Assembly: GCA_900314255.1 (NCBI GenBank)
Contig: OMUP01000020.1
Span: 1,938 to 65,937 of the forward strand
Direction: 5' to 3'
DNA length: 64,000 bases
Source: an uncultured Lachnospiraceae bacterium
GTDB taxonomy: Bacteria; Bacillota; Clostridia; Lachnospirales; Lachnospiraceae
Part shown: in pieces, positions 996 through 59,193 of the stretch
How the letters are laid out: every line of letters starts with the position of its first letter
Numbering within the stretch: the first letter of the stretch is position 1
Made by a program: the position numbers and the translations under genes
Notes under the pieces: generated by a model
Seen by the model: only the letters and a program-made list of their open reading frames with translations
Told to the model about the DNA's origin: nothing
Databases searched by the model: none

Positions 996-1301
996 CGCAT
1001 AAGCCACGCATCGCTTCGCCGCCTGCCGGCGGCTCTCTTAACCTCGCGCATAAGCCACGCCGTCTTCAATGGCTCCCGCGCTGCTCAACGCCCTCGGCTT
1101 CGCCGAGGGATCGCGTCGTTCGCCATGCCTCATCACATGCTGTGCATGTGTGAGGACCTGGCTCACTTAGACGCGTTAATTCGCACTCTCGTCACGCTTC
1201 GCGTGTCTCCGTGCTCATTTCCGTTGCCGTGCCTGAAGCAAAAAGCCATCCTGGCATGCAAGCATGCCGGCTGGCTTCTGCTTCGGCACTGGCTTATGCG
1301 C
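996..1301. other. GC-rich multi-hairpin intergenic element (candidate structured RNA or REP-like element); function unknown
   Basis: Identical 14-mer CGCATAAGCCACGC at 996-1009 and 1047-1060. GCGCATAAGCCA (1046-1057) is perfectly complementary to TGGCTTATGCGC (1290-1301). Enclosed hairpins: 1091-1109 (8 bp), 1128-1155 (12 bp with one bulge), 1193-1205 and 1253-1268; a further hairpin at 1018-1033 lies just 5' of the closing helix. No credible ORF or RBS. Confidence 0.35.
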
Positions 1302-3976: not shown

Positions 3977-4079
3977 GGTATCACCTTCTTTCAAACGGGA
4001 TCTGCAGCCTGCCGTCCTGTCCGGCCTCTCTGCCAGATCCTCTTATTTCCTTTCACATCATCATTTGTATCACTGGTTA

Positions 4080-20472: not shown

Positions 20473-20479
20473 AAAATTC

Positions 20480-20672
20480 TCCCTTCTCACATCCAGACTG
20501 TACTGTCGGCTGAGGTTTCTCACCTCATCTGCCGGAGAATCTGTTCTGACCTGCAGCGGTCATTCATCCGGCTCGCGGGCTCACCGCCAGAACGAAAAGC
20601 GTCTGGTCAGTATACCGCCGGTCAGGAATTCACGTGAGGCTTCCCCACGTGTCACCTTGCCCCGAAGAGCTC
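20480..20672 (-). promoter_or_regulatory. FMN riboswitch (RFN element)
   Basis: The reverse strand reads CTCTTCGGGGCAAGGTGA...AATTCCTGACCGGCGGTAT...AGCCCGCGAGCC...GCCGACAGTACAGTCTGGATGTGAGAAGGGAG. All conserved RFN blocks are present in the right order. The P1 3' strand abuts the RBS. Confidence 0.9.
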
Positions 20673-20700
20673 AAAAATATGTAATTGTCAGCCTTTCGGC

Positions 20701-31176: not shown

Positions 31177-31249
31177 GCTACTGTGGCTCAGTTGGTAGAG
31201 CAGCTGATTCGTAATCAGCAGGTCACCGGTTCAAGTCCGGTCAGTAGCT
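31177..31249 (+). tRNA. tRNA-Thr (anticodon CGT)
   Basis: Hand-folded cloverleaf: acceptor GCTACTG/CAGTAGC, D arm GCTC/GAGC, anticodon stem GCTGA/TCAGC with loop TTCGTAA, T arm ACCGG-TTCAAGT-CCGGT. No encoded CCA. Confidence 0.9.
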
Positions 31250-31259
31250 TTTTATTTAT

Positions 31260-31330
31260 GCAGATGTAGTTCATCGGTAGAATGCTAGCTTCCCAAGCTG
31301 GAGAGGCGGGTTCGACTCCCGTTATCTGCT
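31260..31330 (+). tRNA. tRNA-Gly (anticodon CCC)
   Basis: Hand-folded cloverleaf: acceptor GCAGATG/TATCTGC (one G-U pair), anticodon stem CTAGC/GCTGG with loop TTCCCAA, T arm GCGGG-TTCGACT-CCCGT. No encoded CCA. Confidence 0.85.
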
Positions 31331-31969: not shown

Positions 31970-33967
31970 ATGGCAGAAAAACATGGCAGTCTCACGATCA
32001 ACAGTGAGAACATTTTCCCTATTATCAAAAAATGGATGTATTCAGATCAGGACATTTTCTTCCGGGAACTGGTCAGCAACGGATCTGATGCCATCACAAA
32101 GCTGCGTCAGCTCGCTCTGATGGGCGACTACACACAGCCGGACGATATTGAATACAAGATCGAGGTCAAAGTAAGCAGCAAGAACAAGACCATCCGCTTC
32201 ATCGATAATGGCCTCGGCATGACCGCCGACGAGGTTGACAAGTACATCAACCAGATCGCTTTCTCCGGCGCCAAAGAATTCCTGGACAAGTTCAAGGACA
32301 AGGGCGGAGCTGACCAGATCATCGGCCACTTCGGTCTCGGCTTCTACTCCGCGTTCATGGTCGCCGACCGCGTGACCATCGACACGAAATCCTGGGAAAA
32401 GGACAGCGCGCCGGTTCTCTGGAGCTGCGACGGCGGAACGGATTTCATGATGACAGACGGCTCCCGCACGGAAACCGGCACAACCATCACGCTGTTCCTC
32501 AATGACGAGAGCGTGAAGTATGCGAACTACTACACCGCCGAGGAGATTCTCCACAAGTACTGCGAGTTCATGCCCAATCCGATCTATCTGACCGATGAGG
32601 ATCTCGGACAGCAGACCGAGGACATCCCGGAAGAAGAGATCACTGAAAAGGATACCGTCATCAAAAAGTTCACGAAGCCGGCTGTGACCGAGGAAAAGAA
32701 GAAGGACGACGGGACGACGGAAACGGTTGAGAAAGAGCCGGAAAAAAAGATGGCCACCATCGTCAAGAGACCGGTTATGCTCAATGACACGCATCCGCTC
32801 TGGACGAAAAGCCCCAGCACATGCACGAAGGAGGAGTACATCTCCTTCTATCAGAAGGTCTTTAGTGACTACCGGGAGCCGCTGTTCTGGATTCATCTGA
32901 ATATGGACTATCCGTTCACGCTCAAAGGCATCCTCTACTTCCCGAAGCTCAATCCGCACATCGACAAGCTGGAAGGCACCATCAAGCTGTACAACAACCA
33001 GGTATTTGTCGCGGATAACATAAAGGAAGTTATCCCGGAATACCTGATGCTGCTCAAGGGCGTCATCGACTGCCCGGATCTGCCGCTGAACGTCAGCCGC
33101 TCGGCGCTGCAGAACGACGGATTTGTCCAGAAGGTTTCCGGCTACATCACCAAGAAGGTTGCCGAGAAGCTCACCGGTATGTTCAAGACGCAGCGCGATG
33201 ACTACAACAAGTACTGGAATGACATCAATCCGTTCATCAAGTACGGCGTAATGCGCGACGAGAAGTTCTACGACCGGATGAAGGATGCTCTCATCTTCCG
33301 CAATCTCGACGGCAAGTATCTGACGCTCAAAGAGTGCATCGACGAGAACAAGGAGAAGCACCCGAACACGATCTATTACTACACCGACGAAAAGGAACAG
33401 AGTCAGTACATCAACATGTTCAAGAACTCCGGAATCGATGCAGTGTGCTTGGATCAGTCCATCGATTCCCCGTACATCTCTTTCCTGGAGAGCAAAAACA
33501 AGGATCTGCATTTCATGCGGCTTGACGCGCAGGTTTCCGAGGCCTTCCGCGACAGCAGCGTAAAGGAAGAGGATCTCAAAGCCGATACGGACAGCCTCAC
33601 GAAGATTTTCCGCGATGCTCTGAAAAACGACAAGCTGAACGTAAAGGTCGAGAAGCTCACCGATCCGTCCGTCTCCGCCCTGATCGCGCTCGACGAGCAG
33701 GATCACCGGATGCAGGAAATGATGAAGATGTACGCCGCATATGGCGAGAGCATGCCGTTTACCGGAAAGGAACAGGAGACGCTGGTGCTCAATGCCGGAA
33801 ATGATCTGGTGCAGCATATCCTCAAAGCGCCGGATTCTGAGGATACGCCGGTTCTCTGCCGTCAGCTCTATGATCTGGCGCGCCTTTCGCACGGCACTCT
33901 GGAGCCTGACGAGATGACCGAGTTTATCCGGCGCAGCAACGATATTCTCCGCCGGCTTGCAAAATAA
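31970..33967 (+). CDS. htpG: molecular chaperone HtpG (Hsp90)
   Basis: 665 aa; FRELVSNGSDAITKLR (GHKL N-box), IGHFGLGFYSAFMVAD, LNVSRSALQ. Confidence 0.95.
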   Translation: MAEKHGSLTINSENIFPIIKKWMYSDQDIFFRELVSNGSDAITKLRQLALMGDYTQPDDIEYKIEVKVSSKNKTIRFIDNGLGMTADEVDKYINQIAFSGAKEFLDKFKDKGGADQIIGHFGLGFYSAFMVADRVTIDTKSWEKDSAPVLWSCDGGTDFMMTDGSRTETGTTITLFLNDESVKYANYYTAEEILHKYCEFMPNPIYLTDEDLGQQTEDIPEEEITEKDTVIKKFTKPAVTEEKKKDDGTTETVEKEPEKKMATIVKRPVMLNDTHPLWTKSPSTCTKEEYISFYQKVFSDYREPLFWIHLNMDYPFTLKGILYFPKLNPHIDKLEGTIKLYNNQVFVADNIKEVIPEYLMLLKGVIDCPDLPLNVSRSALQNDGFVQKVSGYITKKVAEKLTGMFKTQRDDYNKYWNDINPFIKYGVMRDEKFYDRMKDALIFRNLDGKYLTLKECIDENKEKHPNTIYYYTDEKEQSQYINMFKNSGIDAVCLDQSIDSPYISFLESKNKDLHFMRLDAQVSEAFRDSSVKEEDLKADTDSLTKIFRDALKNDKLNVKVEKLTDPSVSALIALDEQDHRMQEMMKMYAAYGESMPFTGKEQETLVLNAGNDLVQHILKAPDSEDTPVLCRQLYDLARLSHGTLEPDEMTEFIRRSNDILRRLAK

Positions 33968-41149: not shown

Positions 41150-41153
41150 ATAG

Positions 41154-41536
41154 AAGAGCTGCACGATAAGCCGGGTTATGTTGCGCTCCGGGAATCTCAC
41201 CCGGAGGCCGGCGATCATCTTTCTAGGCCTGCCGTTGCCGGCAGGCTCAAGCAACCTACCCGAAAGACCGCAGCGGGCCGCTGCATCGCTTTCAATCTGG
41301 TCTTGCTTCGGACGGGGTTTACACAGCCGCTTACAGTTACCTGAAGCGCGGTAGTCTCTTGCACTGCCATTCCACCCTTACCCTTCCGGCTTGCGGAAAG
41401 GCGGTTTCTTTTCTGTTGCACTGGCCTGGGAGTCACCTCCACCGGATGTTATCCGGCGTCCTGCCCTGCGAAGCCCGGACTTTCCTCACCCGCCTCCCTT
41501 GCGGAAGACGGCCGCGACCGCCTGTGCAGCTCATAG
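41154..41536 (-). ncRNA. rnpB: RNase P RNA
   Basis: The reverse strand contains the universal GAGGAAAGTCCGGGC (P4 5' strand) and AACCCGGCTTA (P4 3' strand). The P1 helix GAGCTGCAC/GTGCAGCTC closes about 380 nt. A perfect promoter lies just upstream and a terminator just downstream. The small ORFs called here are spurious. Confidence 0.92.
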
Positions 41537-43356: not shown

Positions 43357-44379
43357 TTAGTACAGACTTCCGGAGTTCACAACCGGCTGCGCGTCGTGAT
43401 TGCCGCATAAAACGACCAGAAGATTGGATACCATGGCCGCCTTGCGCTCCTCATCCAGATCGACGACGCCATTTTCTTTCAGGCGCTCCAGCGCCATTTC
43501 CACCATGCCGACCGCGCCGTCGACAATCATCTTGCGGGCGTCGATGACAGCTGACGCCTGCTGGCGCTGCAGCATTACGGCTGCGATCTCCGGCGCGTAC
43601 GCCAGATATGTGATGCGAGCCTCGAGAATCTCCAGTCCTGCGTTCTGCACTTTGTTCTGGATCATCGAGCGGATGCGCTCGGCCACGACTGTCGTAGAAC
43701 CACGGAGGCTTCCGTCGTCGGCCTGCCCGTCGCCTGTCGTGTCGATGCCCGGCGCCACATCATATGGATAAATCTTCACAATGTCGCGCACTGCCGCGTC
43801 AGCCTGCAGGGAAAGATATTCCTTGTAGTTGTCAACGTTAAATACCGCGCTCGCGGTGTCCTTTACTCTCCAGATAACAGCGACGGAAATTTCGACCGGA
43901 TTTCCCAGAACATCATTGACTTTCTGCCGGGCGTTGCTGAGCGTCATAGCTTTCAGGGAAATCTTGCGCGAACCGGCCGCCTCATCCTTGTTCGTGCCCG
44001 ATGTAAAAACAATCTTGCCCGCGCGGCTTCCCTCATCGACATCGCCGCTCTGTCCGAGGCGCGTCTTCGCCGCCGGATTCACCGCGGAGCAGAACGGATT
44101 TACATAGTAAAATCCTTCTCCTTTCAGCGTCCCGATATACCTGCCGAACAGCGTCAGGACCAGTGCCTCCTGCGGCTTCAGAACCTTCAGCCCCAGAAAC
44201 GGAATCCATCCGATGCACATCCAGATTAATCCCGGCAGAAACACCGGAAGATACGGTGAATCCTCCGTGCCTGCCGCAATCCCGGCGGCAAATGCAGCCA
44301 CCCCTGTCGCGTAAAGACCGCTCCACAGCACAAGAAACAGCATGCCGTTTTTCTTTCCGGACAAAACCTTCTCGCTCAT
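43357..44379 (-). CDS. SPFH/Band-7 (stomatin/prohibitin-like) membrane protein
   Basis: Two N-terminal TM segments, then [18 protein letters not shown]...ISVAVIWRV...[18 protein letters not shown]. Start at 44379 with a GGGAGA RBS; the upstream extension runs through a terminator hairpin. Confidence 0.8.
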
Positions 44380-44422
44380 ACCTTTTCTCCCTCTCGGATC
44401 TCCAAAATGATTTCCTTTATGA

Positions 44423-44454
44423 ATCAGATATTTATCTGATATCATATTGATATC
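44423..44454. promoter_or_regulatory. two overlapping perfect palindromes in the SPFH/RHH promoter region (candidate RHH operator)
   Basis: ATCAGATA-TT-TATCTGAT (44423-44440, 8-2-8) and GATATCA-TAT-TGATATC (44438-44454, 7-3-7). The latter overlaps a TTGACA-17-TATCAA promoter read on the reverse strand. Confidence 0.5.
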
Positions 44455-44494
44455 ACATCCTGAAAAGACTGTCAAGAAGAATGCAAAAAGGCAT

Positions 44495-44548
44495 AAAAAC
44501 ACCGGCTGCCTCTGCTCCATCTACGGGGCAGTCAGACAGCCGGTTTTT
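44495..44548. terminator. terminator after queA (bidirectional architecture)
   Basis: ACCGGCTGCC...GGCAG..CAGCCGGT stem, flanked by AAAAA (44495-44499) and TTTTT (44544-44548). Confidence 0.65.
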
Positions 44549-48144: not shown

Positions 48145-49167
48145 TCAGAACTGATCCAGGAAACGGATGTCATTCTCATACAGAAGACGCATATCGTCGA
48201 TCTCGTCCTTCAGGAGAGCGATTCTCTCAAGGCCGATGCCGAACGCGAAACCGGAATATACATTCGGATCAATGCCGCTCATCTCCAGAACATGCGGATG
48301 AATCATGCCGCATCCCAGAATCTCGATCCAGCCTTCACCCTTGCACATGCGGCAGCCCTTGCCGTGGCACTTGAAGCAGGTCACGTCGCACTCTGCAGAC
48401 GGCTCGGTAAACGGGAAATGGTGCGGGCGGAACTTAACCTTCGTATCCGGCCCGAAGAGCTGCTTTGCGAACTCCGCCAGCGTCCCCTTCAGATCGGCAA
48501 ATGTGATGCCCTTGTCGATGACCATGCCCTCGATCTGATGGAAGCACGGGCTGTGGGTCGCATCCACTTCATCGGCACGGTATACACGTCCCGGCGCGAT
48601 CATGCGGATCGGAAGCTTTCCTCTCTCCATCTGACGCACCTGAACCGGAGAGGTCTGAGTGCGCAGCAGAATCTTGTCATTGATGTAAAATGTATCCTGC
48701 TCGTCCTTGGCCGGATGATTCGCCGGGATATTCAGCGCCTCAAAGTTGTAGTAATCGTATTCAACCTCCGGGCCGTCAACCACTTCGTAGCCCATGCCGA
48801 CAAAGATTCTCTTGACTTCGTCCAGAGCCAGAGTATTCGGATGACTGTGTCCCAGTTTCCCCGATCTGGCCGGAAGCGTCACATCGATCGTCTCCGCCTT
48901 CATCTTCGCGTCAAGCGCTCTGGCAGCGAGCTTCTTTCTCGCCTCTTCCAGGGCCGCCTCAATCTGGGCGCGGGTTTCATTGACCATCTTACCGACAGCC
49001 GGACGATCCTGCGGCGCGACATCGCGCATGCTCTTCAGAACACCGGTGAGCTCGCCCTTCTTTCCGAGAATCGTGACTCGGATCTGATTCAGACCTTCCA
49101 GATCCTGAACCTGTCCGATCTGTCCGGCGGCTTTTTCCCGGATCTCCTCAAGCTTTTCTTTCATCAT
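48145..49167 (-). CDS. pheS: phenylalanine--tRNA ligase alpha subunit
   Basis: 340 aa; class II motifs (FYINDKILLRTQTSPVQ, GRVYRADEVDATHSPCFHQIEG, GFAFGIGLERIA). Confidence 0.95.
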   Translation of the reverse strand: MMKEKLEEIREKAAGQIGQVQDLEGLNQIRVTILGKKGELTGVLKSMRDVAPQDRPAVGKMVNETRAQIEAALEEARKKLAARALDAKMKAETIDVTLPARSGKLGHSHPNTLALDEVKRIFVGMGYEVVDGPEVEYDYYNFEALNIPANHPAKDEQDTFYINDKILLRTQTSPVQVRQMERGKLPIRMIAPGRVYRADEVDATHSPCFHQIEGMVIDKGITFADLKGTLAEFAKQLFGPDTKVKFRPHHFPFTEPSAECDVTCFKCHGKGCRMCKGEGWIEILGCGMIHPHVLEMSGIDPNVYSGFAFGIGLERIALLKDEIDDMRLLYENDIRFLDQF

Positions 49168-49200
49168 GACCGTGATCCTCCCATATACAGCTTGTCACCT

Positions 49201-49229
49201 ATTTTACCTTTATCCTCTTTTGAAAACAA
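49201..49229 (-). promoter_or_regulatory. possible internal promoter for pheST
   Basis: The reverse strand reads TTGTTT-17 nt-TAAAAT inside the 70-nt gap upstream of pheS. Confidence 0.4.
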
Positions 49230-49237
49230 CTCTAACC

Positions 49238-51292
49238 TTAATTTGTCAGCTTCAGATAGGAGTCCTTGAGCTCTTCCAGAAACTCTCCCATCCGGCTGTA
49301 ATATTCTTCCGGCTTTCCCGGGTCCTTCTCGGACTCGATCTGCTCCAGAAGCCGCCACTGCGCAGTAAAGCGGGCATTGTCCCTCGTCGAAGAAATGGCT
49401 TTTTTCGCGCGCACATCTTCCGGATCTTCCGCCTTTGCACTCACATAGGCGCTTCCTCTTGCCAGGATCTTTGCCTGCAGAGCGGCCATGCTGCTTGCCG
49501 GTTCTTCGTTCAGTTCAAAAGCCTTCGCAAAACACTCAGCTGCCCGGTCAAACAGGAAACAGCGCGTGTAAACGATCCCGAGATTATGCCACACCCGGCC
49601 GTAAAACCTGTCCGAAAGCGAGGCATCTCTCGGACCGGCGATGATCTTGTTCAGGTTCTCCATCGCAGAGTTCAGGCAGTCGTTGACGATCAGATTTTCA
49701 GCCACCATATTCATACGCTGGTACGGCCTTGCCGCCTTCAGGGAATCAAACTGCACAGACAGGCGGGAGATCTCGTCCTCTGTGTAAAGCCCGCATTCTT
49801 TGAGTATGGAGGAAAGACTCTTTGAGAGCGGTTCTTCTTTTTGAATCTGCGAGGCAAGATTTGCCGCAAGGCGGCCGCTGCCGGTGCTTTTTAAAAACTG
49901 AAGCAGACCGGCGTTGATAAAGTCTCTTTCGATCAGATACATACTATGGTAAATGTAGTATCCCAGCTCCTCAACCGACCACACACAGCGCTGCGATTTT
50001 CCGACCGGAAGCGGGTGTCTGGCCGGTGTGCCGGCCGGCATCAGCCAGGCTCCCTTTGGGATTACTGCGGAAAAAGGCTTTGCTGCCGCTTTCTGATCCT
50101 GACTTTCACCGGGAGCTTCCTTTTTCTCGTCAAGCTCAACGGTTTCCTCTGCGGACCGTTCAGTCGAAGCATAAAACGCCCCGAATCCGTCATCTTCCAG
50201 CTTCAGCTCTGCTTTGTCCGTGCCAGGGAAATGAACCGTCAGCTTCAGCCTGACGCTGCGGTCATCTCTTGCCGGGAAACCGGTAAGGGACAGCTGTACG
50301 GTCTGCGGTTCCTTTTCCCGGTCGCGCACCAGCACCGTGACGCTGTTCAGACCTTCTTCCATAAAATAACAGGTCCGGTCCGCCTTCAGATAACTCTCTC
50401 CCTGCCGGACAAGTGTCAGCTCCCGGCCTCTTCCGCCCTGCATCAGAATCACGGAAATGCCGGCTGTGATGCGGTTCTGCATGGCAGGAATACTGCGGCC
50501 GAACAGTTTCAGTGTGCCGTCGTCGGCTGCCAGCAGGCATGCACCCTTCACGTACAGATTCTGCCCTGCGAAAACGCGCCGTCCCGTGCACAGTTTCTTG
50601 AGAAGCCCCTCCGGGAACTGATCCGTGTCAAAATAGCAGCCGGTCAGATAGATGGCCGCACAGTTCTGACCCTTCAGCGATTCGTTGAAAAAATCCGAAA
50701 GATCACTTTCCTGGTCCGCAAGCGCCTCACGCCCGAGCACCCCGGGTCCGAAAAGCTGCAGACTGCCGGCAAGCGGCGTAACCGTTGTGTACACATTTTT
50801 TCCGCTGCGGTATTCCTTCAGAAAATACGAGAAAATCCCCGTCTCTCCGTAGTCAAACACCATGCTCCCCGGATCACGCAGGGCCGGCGGCATTCCGTAG
50901 ACATACCCGGCAAATGCCTCCTCGCGGCTGAACACAGATGTCTTCATCGCGGCAATTCCGCATTTCTCAAGAGCTGCAGTCACCGCGGCTGCATTTTCTT
51001 TTGAAAACTCATGCAGGCAGACGCCGATGCCGGCCGGCGACCCGGCTGTCTTCTTCTCCTTCAGGGCAGACAGCAGGCCGCGGAAAATCTTCTCAAGCTG
51101 TTCCGGATCCGTGCATGTGCCGTTTTTGAAAATCCGGGAGAGCGGCGCGCCATTCGGGAACAAATACGAACCCTTTCCGGTCGTAATGTTCTCCACCGCC
51201 CTGGCGTTGGCCTTGTCAGCCCCCGGAATAAAGCAGATCTGCGAGAAGCGTTCTCCCAAATCAATTCCGACATAATAATCACCCGGCTGCAT
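49238..51292 (-). CDS. divergent Hsp70-like (actin-fold) ATPase with an SBD-beta-like middle domain and a novel helical C-terminal domain
   Basis: From the Met at 51292 (AAGGAGAAGAGG RBS): YYVGIDLGERFSQ (phosphate-1-like), MVFDYGETGIFSY (phosphate-2-like), AIYLTGCYFD (adenosine-like). Next comes VTVLVRDREKEPQTVQLSLTGFPARDDRSVRLKLTVHF...LKLEDDGFG, which resembles the DnaK substrate-binding beta domain. An uncharacterised helical tail of about 290 aa follows. From memory, relatives are annotated as a DUF family (unverified). Confidence 0.65.
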   Translation of the reverse strand: MQPGDYYVGIDLGERFSQICFIPGADKANARAVENITTGKGSYLFPNGAPLSRIFKNGTCTDPEQLEKIFRGLLSALKEKKTAGSPAGIGVCLHEFSKENAAAVTAALEKCGIAAMKTSVFSREEAFAGYVYGMPPALRDPGSMVFDYGETGIFSYFLKEYRSGKNVYTTVTPLAGSLQLFGPGVLGREALADQESDLSDFFNESLKGQNCAAIYLTGCYFDTDQFPEGLLKKLCTGRRVFAGQNLYVKGACLLAADDGTLKLFGRSIPAMQNRITAGISVILMQGGRGRELTLVRQGESYLKADRTCYFMEEGLNSVTVLVRDREKEPQTVQLSLTGFPARDDRSVRLKLTVHFPGTDKAELKLEDDGFGAFYASTERSAEETVELDEKKEAPGESQDQKAAAKPFSAVIPKGAWLMPAGTPARHPLPVGKSQRCVWSVEELGYYIYHSMYLIERDFINAGLLQFLKSTGSGRLAANLASQIQKEEPLSKSLSSILKECGLYTEDEISRLSVQFDSLKAARPYQRMNMVAENLIVNDCLNSAMENLNKIIAGPRDASLSDRFYGRVWHNLGIVYTRCFLFDRAAECFAKAFELNEEPASSMAALQAKILARGSAYVSAKAEDPEDVRAKKAISSTRDNARFTAQWRLLEQIESEKDPGKPEEYYSRMGEFLEELKDSYLKLTN

Positions 51293-54200
51293 CCTCTTCT
51301 CCTTTCTCCGGAAGGACCGTGAACAGTTCCCGGACGCAGTAGTCATCCGTCAGAATCTGACGCAGTCTGGATTTCATCTTCCCGGTGTCGTGGCCCTTCC
51401 ACGCCGCAAATGCCCCGGCAAGCATTCCGAAGCGGCCCGCTTCCTCCGGTATTTCTTTCGCGGCAAGCTGCACCGGTGTCTCCCTGAGAGTACCGTCCGG
51501 GAAGGTCTCACTGAAAGTCCCGGTGATACTTTCTCCCGGGAAAAGTACAAATGCGGCCGTGCAGATCCCGCAGATCTGCTCTTTTACGCGCATGGTCCGA
51601 GGCTTTCCGGCATTGCCCAGAATGTCCGTGACCTGATATGTAAGCGAAACGTCGCTGCCCGGTTCGGCCCGGTACGTGACTACAGTCTTGTCCATCACAT
51701 CCGGCGGAAGACTCAGCGTACCGGCAAGCGTATCAAAAAACGCAAAGCTGCGTTTCGCCCGGACCATCTCGTCCAGAATTTCCTGATCAAGCGCCAGGTC
51801 CTCTTCATCAAGCCCGCGGAAATGTTCCTCGCCGTCATGCTTTAAAAGCGCCAGCCGGATGAGGTCCGGCGTTCTGCCGTTTCTGCGGCGTATGCGGTCT
51901 CTGGCCGCCGTGAAGAATACAGGCTCACATTTCTCTCCAAGAACAAAGCTGTCATACGCCTGCGCGTTCAGGAATGCTCTTGTCACCGCCGTATCAGAGC
52001 TGTGGCGCAGATACGCAGTGAAAACCTCCCCCAGGTGCGGCTGACGGCTGTGCGTCACGAGCATCTGGGAGATCAGTCTCTCTTCCAGATCAGGCGCTTC
52101 GACGCCGTTCTCCCGGCACGCAGCAAAAATATCGTACAGCTGTTTTGAAGACCCTTCTGCGCACCTCTGCAGGCAGCGAAGCGATCTCTCGTCATAACAC
52201 CCTCCGGCAAATGCATACGCGCACAGTTGTGTCGTGAGCTCGTCATCTTCTCCATTTTTCATGGCGATAAATCCCGTCGCAAGCGCGAGCACCGTCCCCG
52301 GATCCATTCCGTCCACCCCGTAGTCTTCCGCCGTCGCGGCCGCTTCCTGAAAATACCCGTGCTGCGAGAACAGGCGGATCACGCGGTGAGCTGTGTCAGC
52401 TGTAAGCTCCATGTGATCATCCGGAAGATCCGGTATTTTGCCGTATTTGTCAAAGTAGGCAGTCCTCCAGGAAAAGATCAGTGCCTTTTCCCAGTCCGAG
52501 ATCAGGGGTGAGCCCATGAGCGAACCGGAAAATGACGCGATGGTGTCCTGGGAAGCTTCTTCATGACTGTGCTGCGAGAAGAAGCAGATCTGATACAGCG
52601 GATCCGGAAGACACATCAGCTGATCGCTCTCGGCGATGTGAACATCCGGGAAAACCGCCTCCATTTCATAATTTACCGTTCCGATCTTGCGGTTCCCGTC
52701 CGCGTCCTCGAAGACAAATGCCGTGTGATCTGTGATGACCGGCAGAAAAGCCTCTCCGCCAGAAAGCCCGATCCGCACTTCCGATTTCAGTTCTCTGGTG
52801 AGCAGAACGATGGAATCTGCCTTCGGGTCGGAAGTGCTCACCCTGTACGAGCTGACCGCCCGGAATGCCTGCGGTGCGAGCGCCGGGTCCGGCGTGCCGT
52901 GTTCATACAGATACCGGCAGCAGACGGCCAGGTCGGTCGAAAGGCTGCCGGACGCAAGCGCGTCCGATGTAAATTTCAGAATGGCCGGGCGGTACTCCTC
53001 GCGGATCGATTCCGTGCCATGGCGGATTACATACGAGTAGATCCTCGCCGTCGTCCCGGCATCAAGCCCTTCGCATCCGAATTTGAAATACAGCAGAACG
53101 CTCTTTGGGAGACGGATGTCACGTCCCGGATCCAGGCTCATGGCATAGTACTCATAGAGCCGCGTGATGTTCAGGCCGCGCAGAACGGCCTTTTCGTAGT
53201 ACGGAAACCAGCTCCTGCCGCGCCGGCCTTCCCGGATCAGCAGCCGCACCAGCCCCGTCAGTATCCGGTCATCGTCGATCACCTTGTTCAGCGCGACAAG
53301 AAGCCTTTCATCCGCTGCGTCGCCCGATGAACCGCGGGACGCAAGATCGACCGCCTGCAGGGCAAGCGGCTCTGAAATGACAGAGTAGCGGCAGCCGAAC
53401 AAGATCACCTGCCTCTCGAAAGTATTTAAAACCCGCAGAAGCAGCGGATCCTGATTCAGAATCTGCAGTGCTTCCAGATACAGCACAGGACTGCTGCATC
53501 CTCTTGTGTAGGCATCCTTCATGCGCGTGAGCCAGAGACTGCTGTTCTTCTCCGACGACTTGTCGAGCTGACAGATCATCCAGAGCATCTGCCAGGCATT
53601 CAGCCCCTTGTCGAAGCTGTCCTGAAGTGTCCGCTTTACCTCGTCATCAAATTCCTTCCGGCTGTAGATTGCCGACAGAACATACAGAGAACAGTAATAC
53701 AGAAGAGACCGGTTCTTGTATTCCCGCTCGATGCGCGGCTGCAGAATCTGCATCATTTTCCCGGCTTCTTCTGTCTGTCCGTTCCTGGCGTACAGAAGCG
53801 CCCGGCACAGGCTTGCATTCAGATCTTCCGGATCACTTGCCAGGCGCTGGCTTACAAGCTGCGTGCTGGTCTTCTTCCATTCCTCTTCGCTCTGCTTGCC
53901 CGTCCGGAACATCAGATACTCTTCCGTCAGCCTGAGCGAAAGGAGTCGTTTTTCAGCGTGCTCTTTTCTCTCCTCGCTGTCCGTGAGACTCACGCCGCTG
54001 CGGCGGGCCGTCAGGGTCAGGTCCTGCGCTCTGCCGCCTGAAACAACTCTCACCCGCCCGTAATTGATCCCGGCGTGCAGTTTTTCCGCCTTGATAACGA
54101 GATCTGTCGACCATTTCCCGTTTTCAAAAGCGCCCGTGTCAAGTTCCCCGGCATCACAGGACAGAAATGCATCGTCAGTCAGAATGCGGATTTTTGCATA

Positions 54201-54848
54201 TCCCGGTCCGCTGGCAGACAGGTTCAGACGCACATGCGTGTCGGCCGTGCATGTGACCTTTTCTTCCGAGAGAGCCGCATGTATTTTTACCGGCTGTTTG
54301 GCGGACATGGCCGTCAGAAATTCTTCCACAGCCTGACGCTTGTCTGCCTGGCGCACCAGCGCTTTGTGCAGCAGATCCTCGCGCGAACCAGGCTGCGTGA
54401 GCGCCTCGAAGTCTTCACTTTCAAAGACAGAAGCCGCCGCTGCGGGGTCTTTTTCTGCTAGTAAAGCAAAATCGCGGATATTCTGTATTCTTTTTCCTTC
54501 AGCTTCCGGGTACGGACGCACAAACGTGAACAGGCAGGGAATGACGAATTCGCCGGCGCTGGTTTCGCATGCAATCTGGCACTCGATACCGCCGTCCTCC
54601 GTCTCGCCCCGGCTGTTCACCTCAAAACCGATTGTCACGATATTCCCGCTGCGGACTGCGTCGGTGAGCTTCACGCGCAGATCCGAAGAAGAGGCCTTTA
54701 CCTCGAGCGGTCCGTCCGCCTCGATGGAAAATGCAAACCGGTTCCTTCGCCCAATCCGCACCTCCTCACAGAGACTGTCCGGAATCTTCACGATTTTCGG
54801 GGGCCGCAGGTTGAAATCGCCCTGCGACAGGCGTCTGATACTGTTCAT
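51279..54848 (-). CDS. 1189-aa protein of unknown function: two N-terminal beta-rich modules, a long helical-repeat core, a C-terminal beta-rich module
   Basis: Uninterrupted ORF with no Walker, HxH or other catalytic motif, and no signal peptide or TM segment that I can see. Its ATG directly abuts the rarA stop, and its 3' end overlaps the Hsp70-like gene by 14 nt. Confidence 0.6.
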   Translation of the reverse strand: MNSIRRLSQGDFNLRPPKIVKIPDSLCEEVRIGRRNRFAFSIEADGPLEVKASSSDLRVKLTDAVRSGNIVTIGFEVNSRGETEDGGIECQIACETSAGEFVIPCLFTFVRPYPEAEGKRIQNIRDFALLAEKDPAAAASVFESEDFEALTQPGSREDLLHKALVRQADKRQAVEEFLTAMSAKQPVKIHAALSEEKVTCTADTHVRLNLSASGPGYAKIRILTDDAFLSCDAGELDTGAFENGKWSTDLVIKAEKLHAGINYGRVRVVSGGRAQDLTLTARRSGVSLTDSEERKEHAEKRLLSLRLTEEYLMFRTGKQSEEEWKKTSTQLVSQRLASDPEDLNASLCRALLYARNGQTEEAGKMMQILQPRIEREYKNRSLLYYCSLYVLSAIYSRKEFDDEVKRTLQDSFDKGLNAWQMLWMICQLDKSSEKNSSLWLTRMKDAYTRGCSSPVLYLEALQILNQDPLLLRVLNTFERQVILFGCRYSVISEPLALQAVDLASRGSSGDAADERLLVALNKVIDDDRILTGLVRLLIREGRRGRSWFPYYEKAVLRGLNITRLYEYYAMSLDPGRDIRLPKSVLLYFKFGCEGLDAGTTARIYSYVIRHGTESIREEYRPAILKFTSDALASGSLSTDLAVCCRYLYEHGTPDPALAPQAFRAVSSYRVSTSDPKADSIVLLTRELKSEVRIGLSGGEAFLPVITDHTAFVFEDADGNRKIGTVNYEMEAVFPDVHIAESDQLMCLPDPLYQICFFSQHSHEEASQDTIASFSGSLMGSPLISDWEKALIFSWRTAYFDKYGKIPDLPDDHMELTADTAHRVIRLFSQHGYFQEAAATAEDYGVDGMDPGTVLALATGFIAMKNGEDDELTTQLCAYAFAGGCYDERSLRCLQRCAEGSSKQLYDIFAACRENGVEAPDLEERLISQMLVTHSRQPHLGEVFTAYLRHSSDTAVTRAFLNAQAYDSFVLGEKCEPVFFTAARDRIRRRNGRTPDLIRLALLKHDGEEHFRGLDEEDLALDQEILDEMVRAKRSFAFFDTLAGTLSLPPDVMDKTVVTYRAEPGSDVSLTYQVTDILGNAGKPRTMRVKEQICGICTAAFVLFPGESITGTFSETFPDGTLRETPVQLAAKEIPEEAGRFGMLAGAFAAWKGHDTGKMKSRLRQILTDDYCVRELFTVLPEKGEEDAAG

Positions 54849-56177
54849 TTAAGCGTCATCTCCGTGCTTCAGATTATTCAGGAATTCGCCGACTGCCTTT
54901 TCTCTGCCCTCGGCGGTCGGTCTGTAAAAAGCTGTCCCCGCAAGAGCGTCGGGCAGATACTGCTGCTTCACGTAATGGTGCGGGAAATCATGGGCGTACT
55001 TGTATCCGGCGCCGTGTCCGAGTTTTCCTGCCCCCGGATAGTGCGAATCCCGCAGATGTTCCGGTACAGCAGGTGACGGATCTGCCGTGACAGCATCCAG
55101 GGCGTCATCAATCGCAATGGTGCAGGCATTGCTCTTCGGCGCGCTCGCGATGTAAATCGCGGCTTCGCTTAAAATCAGTTTGCCTTCCGGCATTCCGATC
55201 CGCTCCACTGCCTGTGCGGCCGCCACCGCGACAACGAGTGCCTGCGGATCCGCATTTCCGACATCTTCGCTCGCACAGATCATCATGCGCCGGGCAATGA
55301 ACTTCGGGTCCTCGCCCGCATACAGCATCCTGGCGAGCCAGTACACTGCTGCATCCGGATCCGAACCGCGCATGCTTTTGATAAATGCTGAAATTGTGTC
55401 ATAGTGGCCGTCACCGGATTTGTCATAGCGGACAGCGCGCTTCTGAATGCACTCCTGCGCCACATTCAGATCGATCACGATCCGCCCGTTCTGCGAAACC
55501 GCAGTCGTGAGCGCGCCCAGCTCGAGCGCGTTGAGCGCACTGCGGGCATCGCCTCCGCAGGCGTCCGCGAGAAAATCGCAGGCGTCGTCTGTGAGAACAA
55601 CATTCATACTGCCGAGTCCGCGCTTTGAATCCTTTACCGCGCGGCCAAGCAGGACTTTGATGTCCTCCGGCTTCAGAGGCCTCAGCTCAAAGACCGTTGA
55701 GCGCGAAATCAGGGCGCTGTTGACTTCAAAGTACGGATTTTCCGTCGTGGCACCGATGAGCACGATTGTGCCGTCCTCCACAAACGGAAGCAGAAAATCC
55801 TGCTGTCCCTTGTTAAAACGGTGAATCTCATCAATGAACAGGATCGTCTTCTTCCCGTACATGCCGAGGCTGTCTTTTGCCCGGTTTACCGCCTCTTCCA
55901 TGTCCTTCTTGCCGGCTGTCGTCGCGTTGATCTTCTCAAATCCCGCGCTCGTCGTGCCTGCGATCACCCGGGCCAGCGTCGTCTTGCCGGTCCCCGGAGG
56001 GCCGTAAAAAATCACAGAACGCAGCCTGTCTGCCTGAATCATTCTTGTGAGCATCCTGCCCGGTCCCAGAATGTGTTCCTGCCCGACGACCTCCGAGAGC
56101 GTCTGCGGCCGCATTCTGGCCGCCAGAGGTGCTTCCTTTTCCTGTGTATCTTCCCGCATCAGATCAAACAGATCCAT
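54849..56177 (-). CDS. rarA: replication-associated recombination protein A (MgsA/RarA AAA+ ATPase)
   Basis: [49 protein letters not shown]...SAFIKS.RGSDPDAA.YW. ATG at 56177; alternatively a GTG at 56189 overlapping the upstream stop. Confidence 0.92.
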   Translation of the reverse strand: MDLFDLMREDTQEKEAPLAARMRPQTLSEVVGQEHILGPGRMLTRMIQADRLRSVIFYGPPGTGKTTLARVIAGTTSAGFEKINATTAGKKDMEEAVNRAKDSLGMYGKKTILFIDEIHRFNKGQQDFLLPFVEDGTIVLIGATTENPYFEVNSALISRSTVFELRPLKPEDIKVLLGRAVKDSKRGLGSMNVVLTDDACDFLADACGGDARSALNALELGALTTAVSQNGRIVIDLNVAQECIQKRAVRYDKSGDGHYDTISAFIKSMRGSDPDAAVYWLARMLYAGEDPKFIARRMMICASEDVGNADPQALVVAVAAAQAVERIGMPEGKLILSEAAIYIASAPKSNACTIAIDDALDAVTADPSPAVPEHLRDSHYPGAGKLGHGAGYKYAHDFPHHYVKQQYLPDALAGTAFYRPTAEGREKAVGEFLNNLKHGDDA

Positions 56178-56185
56178 GAGACTCC

Positions 56186-57736
56186 TCACTTCTGAATCCA
56201 GATTTTCACGGCCGCCCCGGGACTTGTGGCATTTCCTCTGCGATCAAAAATCAGCAGCTGACCGTCACTTCCCGCTGCGTATGTTTTCCCGCGGAAAACG
56301 ATAACCTGATCCGCGTTGCCGGCCCCGGAAAGCTGTGTCTGTTCACCGGAAAGTGATATCAGATACACCCCGGAATCTGTCATAACCGCAGCGCCGTCAA
56401 ATCCCGTCACGTAAGACATCGCCCCCGTCAGACTGTCTGAAAGCACCTGCAGTTTCCGGCCGGACAACATACAGATCTCACCCTGCTCATCCGTAAACAG
56501 CAGCTTTTTCTTATCCGCTATCCATACATACGCCGAATCAGCGCGGGTATCTGCCGCCTGTACCAGAACGCCGTTATCCTCTGTAAAGATTCCGCTGGTG
56601 CCGGCCGCATATACCGCTGTGTCTCCCTTCATAAAAAATGTGAGCGACTGCGTGGAATCCCAGATTTTTTCAGTAGTCCGGCCATCAGAAATATAATATG
56701 TGCCGTCAGACCGGTAGATATATGAGCTTCCGCTTCTTAAAACTGTTCCGCCGGCCTGTGTGTACACACCTGTTTTACCAGGATCCGGAACCTGAAGATC
56801 CGAGGCTCTTTCTGCAATTTCCGTGGTACTGATCGCACCCCGGCTGTCAGATGAAAACTTATACAGTACACCGTCCCGGATGTACACAGCACTTCCGTCT
56901 TCCGGCGTCCCGTGAAACTGTGTGACATTGATATCCACGCGCACGCTTCCGCCCGATGCGCGGGCAAAATAAGCCGTAGCACCGCTGCCCGAATACGCCC
57001 AGTTTTCTTCCGAAGACGGATTCAGCAGATAAAAGCAGGCTCCGTCATCCGCAATCCCGGCCAGCTCCACATCGACATCTTCTGTCGCCAGCTTCTCGTA
57101 TCCGTCCGGATTGCCGCTCTTCCACCGGCAGATGACATTCCGGCCGCCGGTGTAAAACACAGCCGCAAAATACCGGCCGTTTTCTGACACCGCAGAAACT
57201 TTAAGTGTCTCTCCGGCCATATCGCCCGGAAGCGCCGAAAAGTACGCTTTCCCGGAATCGCTCCAGAAAGTGGTCCGCCCGTCGGACACATCCTTCAGGC
57301 TGTCACTTTCCACCTGACTTGTGGTGCCATCTGCGTACACCCACAGATGGGTGTGCGTATAGGTCCATATTCCTCTTCCCGCAGATACGCAAATCAGCAG
57401 CAGCAGACAAACTGCCGCTGCTGTGAGAATCTGTTTCCGGAAGCGCCTGCCGAATTTCCCGAGAACATACAGAAAGTCCTGTATCTTCTCATATAGAAAA
57501 TCCAGCGCCGCATTCAGGGCACGCAGCGTTTTGGAAGCGGCCGGCTTCTTTTTCGTGCGCCTGCCATTTCTGCCGCGTCTCCTGTTATTTTTCTTATTAA
57601 GGCTGTCCTGACTCCGCTCATATGCCGCGCGGCGCTTTTCATACGCCTCCTGGTTGACCAGGATTTTCGGCTTTTCACAGTACGGGCAGGAATCGCCCTC
57701 ATATTCGCGCCCGCATTTGGGACAGATTTTTGCCAT
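56186..57736 (-). CDS. zinc-ribbon membrane protein: cytoplasmic CPKC...CPYC ribbon and basic linker, one TM segment, large extracytoplasmic beta-rich (propeller-like) domain
   Basis: MAKICPKCGREYEGDSCPYCEKP, RRRGRNGRRTKKK, TM ILTAAAVCLLLLICV, then about 380 aa of repetitive G/S/T/Y-rich beta-type sequence. Confidence 0.6.
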   Translation of the reverse strand: MAKICPKCGREYEGDSCPYCEKPKILVNQEAYEKRRAAYERSQDSLNKKNNRRRGRNGRRTKKKPAASKTLRALNAALDFLYEKIQDFLYVLGKFGRRFRKQILTAAAVCLLLLICVSAGRGIWTYTHTHLWVYADGTTSQVESDSLKDVSDGRTTFWSDSGKAYFSALPGDMAGETLKVSAVSENGRYFAAVFYTGGRNVICRWKSGNPDGYEKLATEDVDVELAGIADDGACFYLLNPSSEENWAYSGSGATAYFARASGGSVRVDINVTQFHGTPEDGSAVYIRDGVLYKFSSDSRGAISTTEIAERASDLQVPDPGKTGVYTQAGGTVLRSGSSYIYRSDGTYYISDGRTTEKIWDSTQSLTFFMKGDTAVYAAGTSGIFTEDNGVLVQAADTRADSAYVWIADKKKLLFTDEQGEICMLSGRKLQVLSDSLTGAMSYVTGFDGAAVMTDSGVYLISLSGEQTQLSGAGNADQVIVFRGKTYAAGSDGQLLIFDRRGNATSPGAAVKIWIQK

Positions 57737-57804: not shown

Positions 57805-59193
57805 TCAGAATGCAAGTTTCTCTGCGAAGTACGCTCTCAGATCATCGATCTTCACGCGCTCCTGCGCCATTGTGTCGCGGTCGCGCACCGTAACAGCACC
57901 GTCTGTTTCCGAATCGAAGTCGTAGGTGACGCACCACGGCGTTCCGATCTCATCCTGTCTTCTGTAGCGCTTGCCGATGTTGCCGCGGTCGTCATAATCG
58001 CAGACAAAGTCCTTCGACAGCATGTCGCGGATCGGCTCCGCCTTGTCGCCAAGCTTCTTGGAGAGCGGAAGCACGGCCACCTTGACCGGTGCAAGAGCCG
58101 GATGGAAATGCAGAACGGTGCGCTTGTCGCCGCCCTCGAGCTCTTCTTCATCATAAGCAGAACACAGGAATGCGAGTGTCACGCGGTCCGCGCCCAGTGA
58201 CGGCTCGATGACATACGGAATGTATTTTTCCTTGGTCTCATCGTCAAAATAGGAAAGATCCTGGCCGGAAACTTCCTGATGACGGGTCAGATCGTAATCC
58301 GTGCGGTCTGCGATGCCCCACAGCTCGCCCCATCCGAACGGGAACAGGAACTCAAGATCGGTCGTGGCCTTTGAGTAGAAGGACAGCTCTTCCTTCTCAT
58401 GATCTCTTGCTCTCATCTCTTCCGGCTTGATACCCAGATCCTGCAGCCACTTGATGCAGAACTGTTTCCAGTATGCGAACCACTCCAGATCTGTGTCCGG
58501 CTTGCAGAAGAACTCAAGCTCCATCTGCTCAAACTCTCTGGTGCGGAACGTGAAGTTGCCCGGCGTAATCTCGTTTCTGAAGGACTTGCCGATCTGGCCG
58601 ATGCCGAACGGAACCTTCTTGCGGCTCGTGCGCTGAACATTCTTGAAGTTTACAAAAATCCCCTGTGCAGTCTCCGGGCGGAGATATACGGTATTCTTCG
58701 CATCTTCCGTGACGCCCTGGAAGGTCTTGAACATCAGGTTGAACTGACGGATCTCCGTGAAGTTGTGCTTTCCGCACTTCGGGCAGCAAATATTGTGCTC
58801 TTCCACGAAGTCTTCCATCTGCTTGTTGGACCAGCCGTCAACCGAACCGCCGAGATCAAAATCATTGTCAGCCGCCCAGTCCTCAATCAGCTTGTCCGCT
58901 CTGTATCTCTCATGGCATTCCTTGCAGTCCATCAGCGGATCCGAGAAGCTCGACAGATGTCCGCTGGCGATCCAGGTCTGCGGATTCATCAGAATTGCGC
59001 AGTCAACGCCTACATTGTAGCGGCTCTCCTGAATGAACTTCTTCCACCAGGCTTTCTTTACATTGTTCTTGAGCTCAACACCTAAGTTCCCGTAATCCCA
59101 TGTGTTGGCCAGCCCGCCGTAGATCTCGGAACCCGGATATACAAAGCCTCTTGCCTTGGCAAGCGCAACAATCTTGTCCATTGTCTTTTCCAT
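57805..59193 (-). CDS. glyQS: glycine--tRNA ligase (single-chain alpha2 type)
   Basis: 462 aa; [39 protein letters not shown] and a C-terminal anticodon-binding domain. GGGAGGAG RBS. Confidence 0.95.

Follow-up and report, generated by a model that had tools for sequence, protein, structure and literature searches.

A divergent Hsp70 relative encoded with a scaffold-like partner in a conserved gene module of Lachnospiraceae

Introduction

What is encoded by a pair of overlapping genes, one of which resembles Hsp70 only remotely? This question is raised by a stretch of 64,000 nucleotides of an uncultured Lachnospiraceae bacterium (assembly GCA_900314255.1, contig OMUP01000020.1, positions 1,938 to 65,937), the whole of which is called the window here. 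On its minus strand, a DUF5717 gene (51279-54848; an open reading frame (ORF) of 1189 amino acids (aa)) is followed by a DUF5716 gene (49238-51292; 684 aa). The original prediction, made from the sequence alone, regarded them as a divergent Hsp70-like ATPase and a partner without motifs, joined in a complex.

Hsp70 is among the most conserved proteins, and the bacterial paralogues HscA and HscC still resemble DnaK. In the lineage described here, the lid has been lost, the ATPase domain has become smaller and the constraint on the catalytic loops has eased; nevertheless, this Hsp70 has been kept across a dominant bacterial family of the human gut and the rumen. DUF5716 and DUF5717 are already known as Pfam DUFs, so that their existence is not new, and as the original prediction had stated, the annotated relatives carry DUF labels only. 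We found no paper that mentions DUF5717, only one unrelated paper that mentions DUF5716, and nothing relevant in the literature on Hsp70-like proteins in Lachnospiraceae. Likewise, we found no published account of the Hsp70 ancestry, of the three-to-four-gene module with the c2 and c3 genes described below, or of the gene fusions.

We consider it most likely, with about as much confidence as doubt, that the pair makes up the core of a chromosomal module of Lachnospiraceae, the products of which form a stable scaffold complex around a degenerate Hsp70. Solving its function would explain what two Pfam DUFs and two families that are absent from Pfam (c2 and c3) are for, would show what the Hsp70 fold becomes once cycling stops, and could reveal a cell-biological or proteostasis apparatus specific to Lachnospiraceae. 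There is no sign of a new biochemical principle; the module is unusual and testable.

Kinship of the DUF5716 protein with Hsp70

The 684-aa protein was matched by the Pfam model DUF5716_C (PF18980) over residues 89-387 with 189.4 bits (E 9.4e-56; gathering threshold, 34.7 bits), and the DUF5716 model also matched all 110 representatives of the family. Pfam HSP70 (PF00012) matched neither the window protein nor any of the 110 members at E <= 0.01, and tblastn with DnaK gave no match in the window. Searches of PDB with the single sequence or with a profile of seven sequences returned TPR noise only. NCBIfam and PADLOC gave no useful match, and PHROGs gave one weak match to a family of unknown function.

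The profile hidden Markov model (HMM) of the 110 representatives reached Geobacillus DnaK in PDB with E 1.6e-8 and residues 1-201 of Mycoplasma DnaK with E 3e-7. Six matches lay below 1e-6, and all of them were DnaK. Then the family was aligned by hhalign with residues 4-246 of E. coli DnaK, the sequence of which was verified against PDB chains. The probability was 68-84%, with E 7e-6 at 84%, and the register placed GIDLG on GIDLG of DnaK and FDY...G on DLGGGT. The AlphaFold2 model had a predicted local distance difference test score (pLDDT) of about 85 over residues 1-388. In the Foldseek search of PDB with this model, the 50 best matches were all Hsp70 or Hsp110, DnaK 7krv giving E 2.8e-12. 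The alignments ran over about 510-560 columns across the nucleotide-binding domain (NBD) and the beta-sandwich part of the substrate-binding domain (SBD-beta), and lid-less DnaK 5obu was among them. The identity in the structural alignments to Hsp70 was 9-13%.

Because the profile search, hhalign and the structural comparison agree as three independent lines, the homology is established. That is, the DUF5716 protein is a true but extreme relative of Hsp70. The original prediction had expected a search to reveal this; Pfam HSP70 stayed silent, whereas the family profile, hhalign and Foldseek reached Hsp70. Its view that the protein is too diverged to be an orthologue of DnaK or HscA agrees with the low structural identity and with the lack of a Pfam HSP70 match in all 110 members.

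The reduced actin-fold NBD occupies residues 1-258 (50519-51292, minus strand), with GIDLG at 9-13, FDY..G at 146-152, YLTGxxF at 215-221 and RRVFAGQNLYVKGAC at 238-252. The three actin-fold motifs that had been claimed, GIDLGERFS (9-17), VFDYGETGIFS (145-155) and IYLTGCYFD (214-222), are present in this order, and the first two sit where the profile alignment to E. coli DnaK puts phosphate-1 and phosphate-2. The NBD is followed by a predicted SBD-beta-like sandwich at residues 267-388 (50129-50494, minus strand), which was assigned from the strands of the AlphaFold2 model (267-386) and from Foldseek. The register claimed earlier for this segment coincides with the best local match by hhalign, that of window residues 334-371 with DnaK 456-494, which is weak alone (E 0.012), and the structural comparison agrees with it.

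Thus, the protein shares with DnaK, HscA and HscC a homologous actin-fold NBD and a beta-sandwich at the position of SBD-beta. The order of the motifs is also alike: GIDLG, FDxxxxG and LTGxGF are followed by NLYxKGA, which resembles NPDEAVAxGAA, and by PxRxxxxRΦxΦxΦxF, which resembles PAPRGxPQIEVTF. It differs from DnaK in that its NBD has about 260 aa against about 380, with subdomains IB and IIB reduced, in that the phosphate loops are degenerate, and in that an equivalent of K70, a conserved hydrophobic linker and a helical lid are lacking. It is encoded together with DUF5717 and c2, whereas J-domain or GrpE partners are not found nearby. No transmembrane segment was predicted in the DUF5716 or the DUF5717 protein.

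The fused C-terminal part

The family was searched by HMMER, which gave 979 clusters at 50% identity. The DUF5716 proteins fall into two length classes, the majority of about 385-430 aa and the others of about 665-727 aa. Relatives of the short form stop right after the beta-sandwich, at the equivalent of about residue 388. In about 90% of the relatives a separate gene of about 275 aa is found, and we call it c2. When the free-standing c2 of one locus (L012, 9442-10275) was compared with the window by tblastn (E 2e-47), it aligned from its first residues to window residues ~414-684, that is, from position 50053 on.

These findings show that the C-terminal part of the window protein is a fused c2 product. 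The c2 domain (residues ~414-684; 49241-50053, minus strand) is helical with one TPR-like repeat at 566-597, and it is joined through a predicted disordered linker (residues 389-433; 49994-50128, minus strand; pLDDT mostly below 50), which is the former intergenic junction. The original prediction had described the lid as replaced by an unrelated helical domain. It is right that no Hsp70 lid (SBD-alpha) is present; the C-terminal ~270 aa are the product of a neighbouring gene that became fused. No Pfam family and no PDB relative was found for c2. Its repeat scored below the Pfam threshold for TPR_1/TPR_2 (20 bits against 27), and the PDB matches of the repeat were designed consensus TPRs only.

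We examined 127 loci (given as L numbers), which consist of 42 contigs taken as one genome per species, 4 obtained through partner homologues, 1 from GenBank and 80 metagenomic loci with a different motif variant. The DUF5716-c2 fusion occurred in 11 of the 127, across several distinct locus groups, which suggests direct contact of both proteins (Rosetta-stone evidence). A helical protein with a TPR repeat that is coupled to an Hsp70-type protein, with gene fusions implying contact, recalls Hop, CHIP and Tom70. The difference is that c2 has one sub-threshold repeat and that DUF5716 lacks an EEVD-like tail; the short forms end in a hydrophobic residue, any residue and Leu ('EELLL', 'TIEL').

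Eroded active site and conserved surfaces

In the NBD of about 260 residues, subdomain IIB is cut to about one helix. The IB segment is deleted in the clade of the window protein; most relatives (~420 aa) keep it as 'IPT...W..GeeA', which matches TPS...LVGqpA of DnaK. Across the 110 members, positions 13-15 of the phosphate-1 loop are C/G/S/T, D/N/E and D/E instead of G-T-T, and the phosphate-2 loop has no glycine run. At the catalytic site, D11 is Asp in 93 of the 110 members (85%), E125 is Glu in 82 (75%) and D147 is Asp in 81 (74%). Across the 110 members, K70 of DnaK has no conserved Lys as its counterpart, and this segment is deleted in the window protein. That is, the family does not have the intact ATP-binding and catalytic set (DxG(T/S)T, K70, E171 and DxGGGT).

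Given the reduced IB and IIB, the deleted K70 segment, the degenerate loops and the incomplete conservation of the catalytic residues, nucleotide turnover by the DUF5716 protein is doubtful. The description as a full-architecture ATPase thus goes too far: the NBD and SBD-beta are present, but IB and IIB are reduced, the K70 segment is gone in this clade and the phosphate loops of the family are acidic or lack glycine.

Residues conserved in at least 90% of the 110 members were G218, G250, A251, R342, R348, D367, G369, F370 and G371. Nearly invariant are G218-x-G-F and the motif VFxGxNLYxKGA at the end of lobe IIA and, in the beta-sandwich, W301, R342 and R348, with R342/R348/D367-x-G-F-G371 lying in the last hairpin. 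The window protein carries Tyr at position 301, where the family has Trp. The interdomain linker of the family is not conserved. In the alignment, this pattern fits selection for interfaces rather than for catalysis.

The main rival explanation, a genuine ATP-driven cycle of a dedicated Hsp70, is on the unlikely side. The sandwich would then fold, assemble or remodel DUF5717 as its client, or clients recruited by DUF5717, and c2 or the solenoids of DUF5717 would replace the J-domain and nucleotide-exchange co-chaperones. Solenoid nucleotide exchange factors have precedents in HspBP1 and Sil1. Such a cycle would agree with the retained architecture of NBD and SBD-beta, with D11, E125, D147 and the G218-x-G/F adenosine motif kept in the window protein, and with the TPR-like c2, which is reminiscent of TPR co-chaperones that bind Hsp70. 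With no canonical DnaJ or GrpE nearby, any cofactors would be encoded in the module. The lack of invariance at the catalytic residues, the acidic loops without glycines, the absence of the K70 segment here and the unconserved linker speak against it, and tblastn detected no HPD or J-like motif.

As to a degenerate Hsp70 that has stopped cycling, the closest functional analogy may be Ssz1, an atypical Hsp70 that is held fixed to zuotin within the ribosome-associated complex. In Ssz1 and Hsp110, an Hsp70 fold whose hydrolysis is impaired or absent forms a subunit permanently bound to a partner; we propose the same for DUF5716, and the Ssz1 structures 6sr6 and 7x3k were among its Foldseek matches. 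The partners of DUF5716 are different, namely a 1189-aa solenoid and a TPR-like protein with no J-protein. The system is bacterial and not eukaryotic, and a link to the ribosome is known for the Ssz1 complex only.

The DUF5717 protein

The 1189-aa partner had been taken for a protein without a family. This does not hold, because Pfam gives both DUF5717_N (PF18984; 553.4 bits, E 1e-165) and DUF5717 (PF18983; 183.8 bits, E 6e-54; threshold, 25 bits), and both models were present in 24 of 24 homologues. The AlphaFold2 model had a mean pLDDT of 84.6. In the N-terminal half, the model consists of a beta-sandwich (residues 19-110), a helical insert (124-180), a second beta-sandwich (189-283) and an alpha-solenoid (290-665). 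The C-terminal half consists of a beta-sandwich (667-731), an alpha-solenoid (740-1041), a beta-sandwich (1055-1129) and a helical hairpin (1139-1176). The four sandwiches look Ig/ASH-like. This fold corrects the original prediction of beta-rich ends around a long helical core, in that the core consists of two solenoids with a central beta-sandwich between them.

The search of PDB with the DUF5717 sequence gave no match. Foldseek against PDB and BFVD returned generic TPR/HAT platforms (Ski3, Ctr9, Naa15, IFT-A and Syf1) and Ig/ASH/BACON arrays with TM-scores of 0.06-0.16. For the DUF5717 solenoids, the best, though weak, structural matches were Ski3, Ctr9, Naa15 and IFT-A subunits, with TM-scores of 0.07-0.16. 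There is no sequence similarity to these eukaryotic proteins of unrelated functions, and DUF5717 interleaves its solenoids with the four sandwiches. Its invariant residues are mainly aromatic or structural and cluster in solenoid 1 (residues 450-630), and no catalytic-looking constellation was found among them. This result and the absence of a transmembrane segment agree with the earlier claim that the partner has neither a catalytic nor a membrane signature. We read DUF5717, from its model, as a probable non-enzymatic cytoplasmic scaffold of Ig-like sandwiches and TPR-like solenoids. In one locus (L030:4406-7763) the DUF5717 gene is split in two frames, with a 692-aa ORF and a downstream fragment, which may be a frameshift, a pseudogene or an assembly error of the metagenome-assembled genome (MAG).

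Conservation of the module and the proposed complex

DUF5717 lay directly upstream of DUF5716 on the same strand in 111 of the 115 testable loci. The c2 gene was adjacent to DUF5716 in 95 of 98 loci, and adjacent or fused in 106 of 109 when the 11 fusions are counted with the 95. A further gene, c3, followed in 61 of 95 loci. The N-terminus of its product (about 390-490 aa) is basic, and the protein further comprises a coiled-coil region, a membrane hairpin of two helices and a C-terminal half that is helical and conserved. Two transmembrane helices were found in all 25 members from L001-L042, except for L036, in which one was detected. The c3 protein had no Pfam or PDB relatives. No homologue of c3 was found anywhere in the window, and several further lineages likewise lack c3 at this locus, among them a clade that is abundant in the human gut (L088-L116). 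These results indicate that the unit is a conserved three-to-four-gene module of DUF5717, DUF5716, c2 and c3, in which c2 is fused and c3 is missing in the window. That is, the two genes are linked as the original prediction held, but they are part of a larger unit than a pair.

In four rumen MAG loci beyond the 61, c3 is fused in frame and without a stop codon to a complete glutamyl-tRNA synthetase (GluRS) (L035:11651-14458, and also L032, L038 and L040). These ORFs encode 924-935 aa, and an internal Met could still give free GluRS. The DUF5716-c2 and c3-GluRS fusions offer concrete interaction hypotheses.

When the matrices of pairwise identity were compared, the correlation of DUF5716 with DUF5717 was r = 0.97. 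The correlations with c2 and c3 were 0.88-0.93, and that with RarA was 0.87. These values indicate that the module is vertically inherited and co-evolving, and together with the synteny they agree with the expectation that the two genes are co-conserved and adjacent across Lachnospiraceae. The named genome carriers were Lachnospiraceae or unclassified Clostridia MAGs from the gut or rumen; one carrier MAG was labelled Bacteroides, presumably by a binning error.

We propose that DUF5717, DUF5716, c2 and, where present, c3 would form one stable and roughly stoichiometric cytoplasmic complex. DUF5716 would be a constitutive structural or clamping subunit and not a freely cycling chaperone, on the model of Ssz1 locked to zuotin. 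It might contact c2 and DUF5717 through its most conserved surfaces, which are VFxGxNLYxKGA, where lobe IIA ends, and R342, R348 and DxGFG in the last sandwich hairpin. Where c3 is present, its membrane hairpin and cytoplasmic coiled coils may tether the complex to the membrane, a tether that is absent from this locus. DUF5716 may still bind nucleotide in a structural or regulatory capacity, but rapid hydrolysis of ATP would be unlikely. We infer complex formation, the non-cycling Hsp70-like subunit and the membrane tethering from the evidence given above.

Several points weigh against this proposal. The physical association is read from the genes, namely from synteny, fusions and co-evolution. 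In four loci (L058/L060 and L080/L082), DUF5716-c2-c3 occurs without DUF5717 within 10 kb; the scaffold is thus not strictly obligatory, and it may have been relocated or lost there. The proteins evolve fast, with a median identity of 31-34% where RarA keeps 75%, which is unusual for a housekeeping machine. The loops of the window protein (GIDLGERFS and FDYGETG) are nearer to Hsp70 than the family average, so that this protein may still hydrolyse ATP. The SBD-beta assignment leans mainly on the predicted structure, its sequence support being weak, and the c2 half of the AlphaFold2 model is of low confidence (pLDDT 35-60).

Reading frames and gene packing

The two minus-strand ORFs lie where the original prediction placed them. 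The DUF5716 ORF could extend to 51346; the ATG at 51292 yields the 684-aa product, and this length agrees with that of database homologues (684-689 aa). A ribosome-binding site, AAGGAG (51299-51304, minus strand), stands within the DUF5717 coding sequence with a 6-nt spacer to this ATG. The start of DUF5716 lies within the end of the DUF5717 gene, in the 14-nt overlap ATGCAGCCGGGTGA (51279-51292, minus strand). The overlap is real, because the DUF5717 stop (TGA, 51281-51279) falls within ATGCAGCCGGGTGA.

The overlap is not distinctive, for the packing is tight along the whole string of genes. The stop of rarA/mgsA (54849-56189, minus strand; AAA+ ATPase; Pfam MgsA_C E 3.5e-72), TAA at 54851-54849, directly abuts the DUF5717 ATG, and a 516-aa ORF, orf516 (56186-57736), overlaps rarA by 4 nt. 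The original prediction had taken the overlap as an argument for a physical complex. We regard it as weak evidence because unrelated neighbours in the same operon are packed equally tightly, and the fusions and the co-evolution seen in the sequences are better evidence.

All genes of the string run in the same direction on the minus strand, in the order class II aminoacyl-tRNA synthetase, orf516, rarA, DUF5717, DUF5716, pheS, pheT, queA and SPFH protein. The class II synthetase gene (57805-59193, minus strand) is followed by a strong terminator-like hairpin (57790-57763), and the next strong terminator stands after the SPFH gene (43100-43070). The pheS gene (48145-49167, minus strand) is directly downstream of DUF5716 and begins 70 nt past its stop (spacer, 49168-49237). 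No T-box leader was found anywhere in the window. From the sequence, transcription of pheST may run on from the genes before it, or it may start at a weak promoter-like element within the spacer, TTGTTT-17-TAAAAT.

Gene neighbourhood and rival explanations

The original prediction had noted no DnaJ or GrpE gene nearby, and tblastn with the E. coli DnaK, DnaJ and GrpE queries (E <= 0.01) was indeed empty for the window and for loci L001-L042. In 22 of the 42 genome loci rarA is upstream of DUF5717, directly in most. It is a conserved neighbour and is regarded as context. In 16 loci HtpG is encoded 1.4-5 kb before the module, frequently with a PrsA-like peptidyl-prolyl isomerase ahead of it, and in L044 HtpG is the immediate neighbour. 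Five loci have ClpB at a distance of 3-4 kb upstream, and L043 has GroESL close by. Both htpG (31970-33964, plus strand) and clpB (1397-3991, minus strand) also occur in the window.

These genes bring in another explanation, that the module is a lineage-specific co-chaperone platform for HtpG (Hsp90) and ClpB, like a bacterial Hop bridge that hands clients to Hsp90. The recurrent upstream positions of HtpG, ClpB and GroESL and the presence of both htpG and clpB in the window would favour it. We think it decidedly unlikely, as the linkage is loose, with intervening genes and some of the genes on the opposite strand. In the window 17 kb separate htpG from the module, with htpG on the other strand, and the pattern may be one of inherited synteny that is counted repeatedly. 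We also know of no TPR-binding tail in bacterial HtpG. A wider speculation is that of an undescribed cytoplasmic machine of Lachnospiraceae, in which a TPR adaptor and an Ig/solenoid scaffold of 130 kDa would hold a degenerate Hsp70 fixed, in most cases with a membrane tether. It would be a counterpart of eukaryotic Hsp70-TPR-Hsp90 assemblies or of the ribosome-associated complex, and would serve as a dedicated platform for co-chaperoning or assembly that works with HtpG or on the translation apparatus. We hold this to be rather unlikely; if it is true, it would be the first TPR-mediated co-chaperone system of the Hsp70 family in bacteria.

Downstream, the Lachnospira-like clade to which the window belongs has pheST; many other clades have valS there, and the c3-GluRS fusion is a third arrangement. 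A membrane-associated platform that is tied to translation or to aminoacyl-tRNA synthetases could be imagined from the four c3-GluRS fusions, from pheST as the next genes (in the window with no T-box and with the 70-nt spacer) and from valS in many clades. We find it highly improbable. The valS gene beside the module has its own T-box in L005, L039 and L057, which points to separate regulation. Its adjacency is probably one ancestral arrangement, and in many loci the genes that come after the module are unrelated ones (pur genes, ABC transporter, gap/pgk). We set aside an operonic link to aminoacyl-tRNA synthetases, as it is weakened by the T-box leaders before valS. Taken together, the neighbourhood gives weak hints that point loosely to proteostasis or translation, and they may equally reflect inherited synteny.

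Hsp70 is encoded with repeat proteins, sometimes of the TPR type, in GTPase-centred conflict systems, which further comprise GAP1-N2 or DO-type GTPases, tubulin, GrpE, DnaJ fusions and effectors (Kaur et al. 2020, PMC7159879). A reading of the module as such a system, directed against phages or used in conflict, would suit the fast evolution of the proteins, the combination of repeat proteins and Hsp70 in some such systems and the occurrence of the module in four virome contigs. We give it hardly any credence. The module has no GTPase, tubulin, GrpE, DnaJ, effector or toxin domain. PADLOC-DB v2 gave no match for either protein, and the module was absent from 72,556 plasmids. It keeps a stable position among housekeeping genes (rarA, pheST, valS, pur genes and htpG), and it is vertically inherited (r = 0.87 with RarA).

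The four virome contigs are fecal records labelled 'UNVERIFIED: Bacteriophage sp.' (MT835486.1, which is L047, MT835988.1, MT837190.1 and MT835719.1). MT835486, the only one of the four that was inspected, carries rarA...DUF5717-DUF5716-c2-c3-valS and is bacterial chromosomal DNA. A mobile or defence element was rejected on account of the lack of a plasmid match and of this 'phage' record being a fragment of a bacterial chromosome. The module is chromosomal and vertically inherited, and its chromosomal setting suggests a housekeeping or proteostasis-type role rather than defence.

Other features of the window

The product of orf516 (minus strand) combines a CxxC...CxxC zinc ribbon at the N-terminus and a basic stretch with a single transmembrane helix (residues 102-120) and a C-terminal domain of about 390 aa that is rich in beta structure. 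It had no Pfam or NCBIfam match, and it is conserved in L001-L003, L016 and L018. The SPFH/Band 7 protein (43357-44520, minus strand; 387 aa) has three hydrophobic segments near the N-terminus. It closes the same-strand gene string, and the hairpin that follows it (43100-43070) is the strongest terminator-like one. We considered orf516 or the SPFH protein as a stand-in for the missing c3 and rejected both, because there is no homology and because orf516 co-occurs with c3 in L016 and L018.

Compared with L001 (Lachnospiraceae MAG contig CAIFEV010000001), the DNA identity was 67-91% over 61300-49300, with a sharp breakpoint at about 49300, at the 3' end of DUF5716 and the start of pheS. Past this point it was 99-100% across pheS-pheT-queA (49300-44500) and again over 43000-41200. 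The breakpoint is the mark of a recent recombination or transfer between species, or of a chimeric metagenome assembly. The idea that the locus is a hypervariable island relative to L001 was rejected, since an identity of 67-91% holds for the entire region upstream, and 99-100% is reached only in the pheST-queA block downstream.

Elsewhere in the window, Rfam matched a class A RNase P RNA (41151-41533, minus strand), an FMN riboswitch (20477-20673, minus strand), two tRNAs (31177-31330, plus strand) and a Clostridiales-1 small RNA (1123-1297, minus strand).

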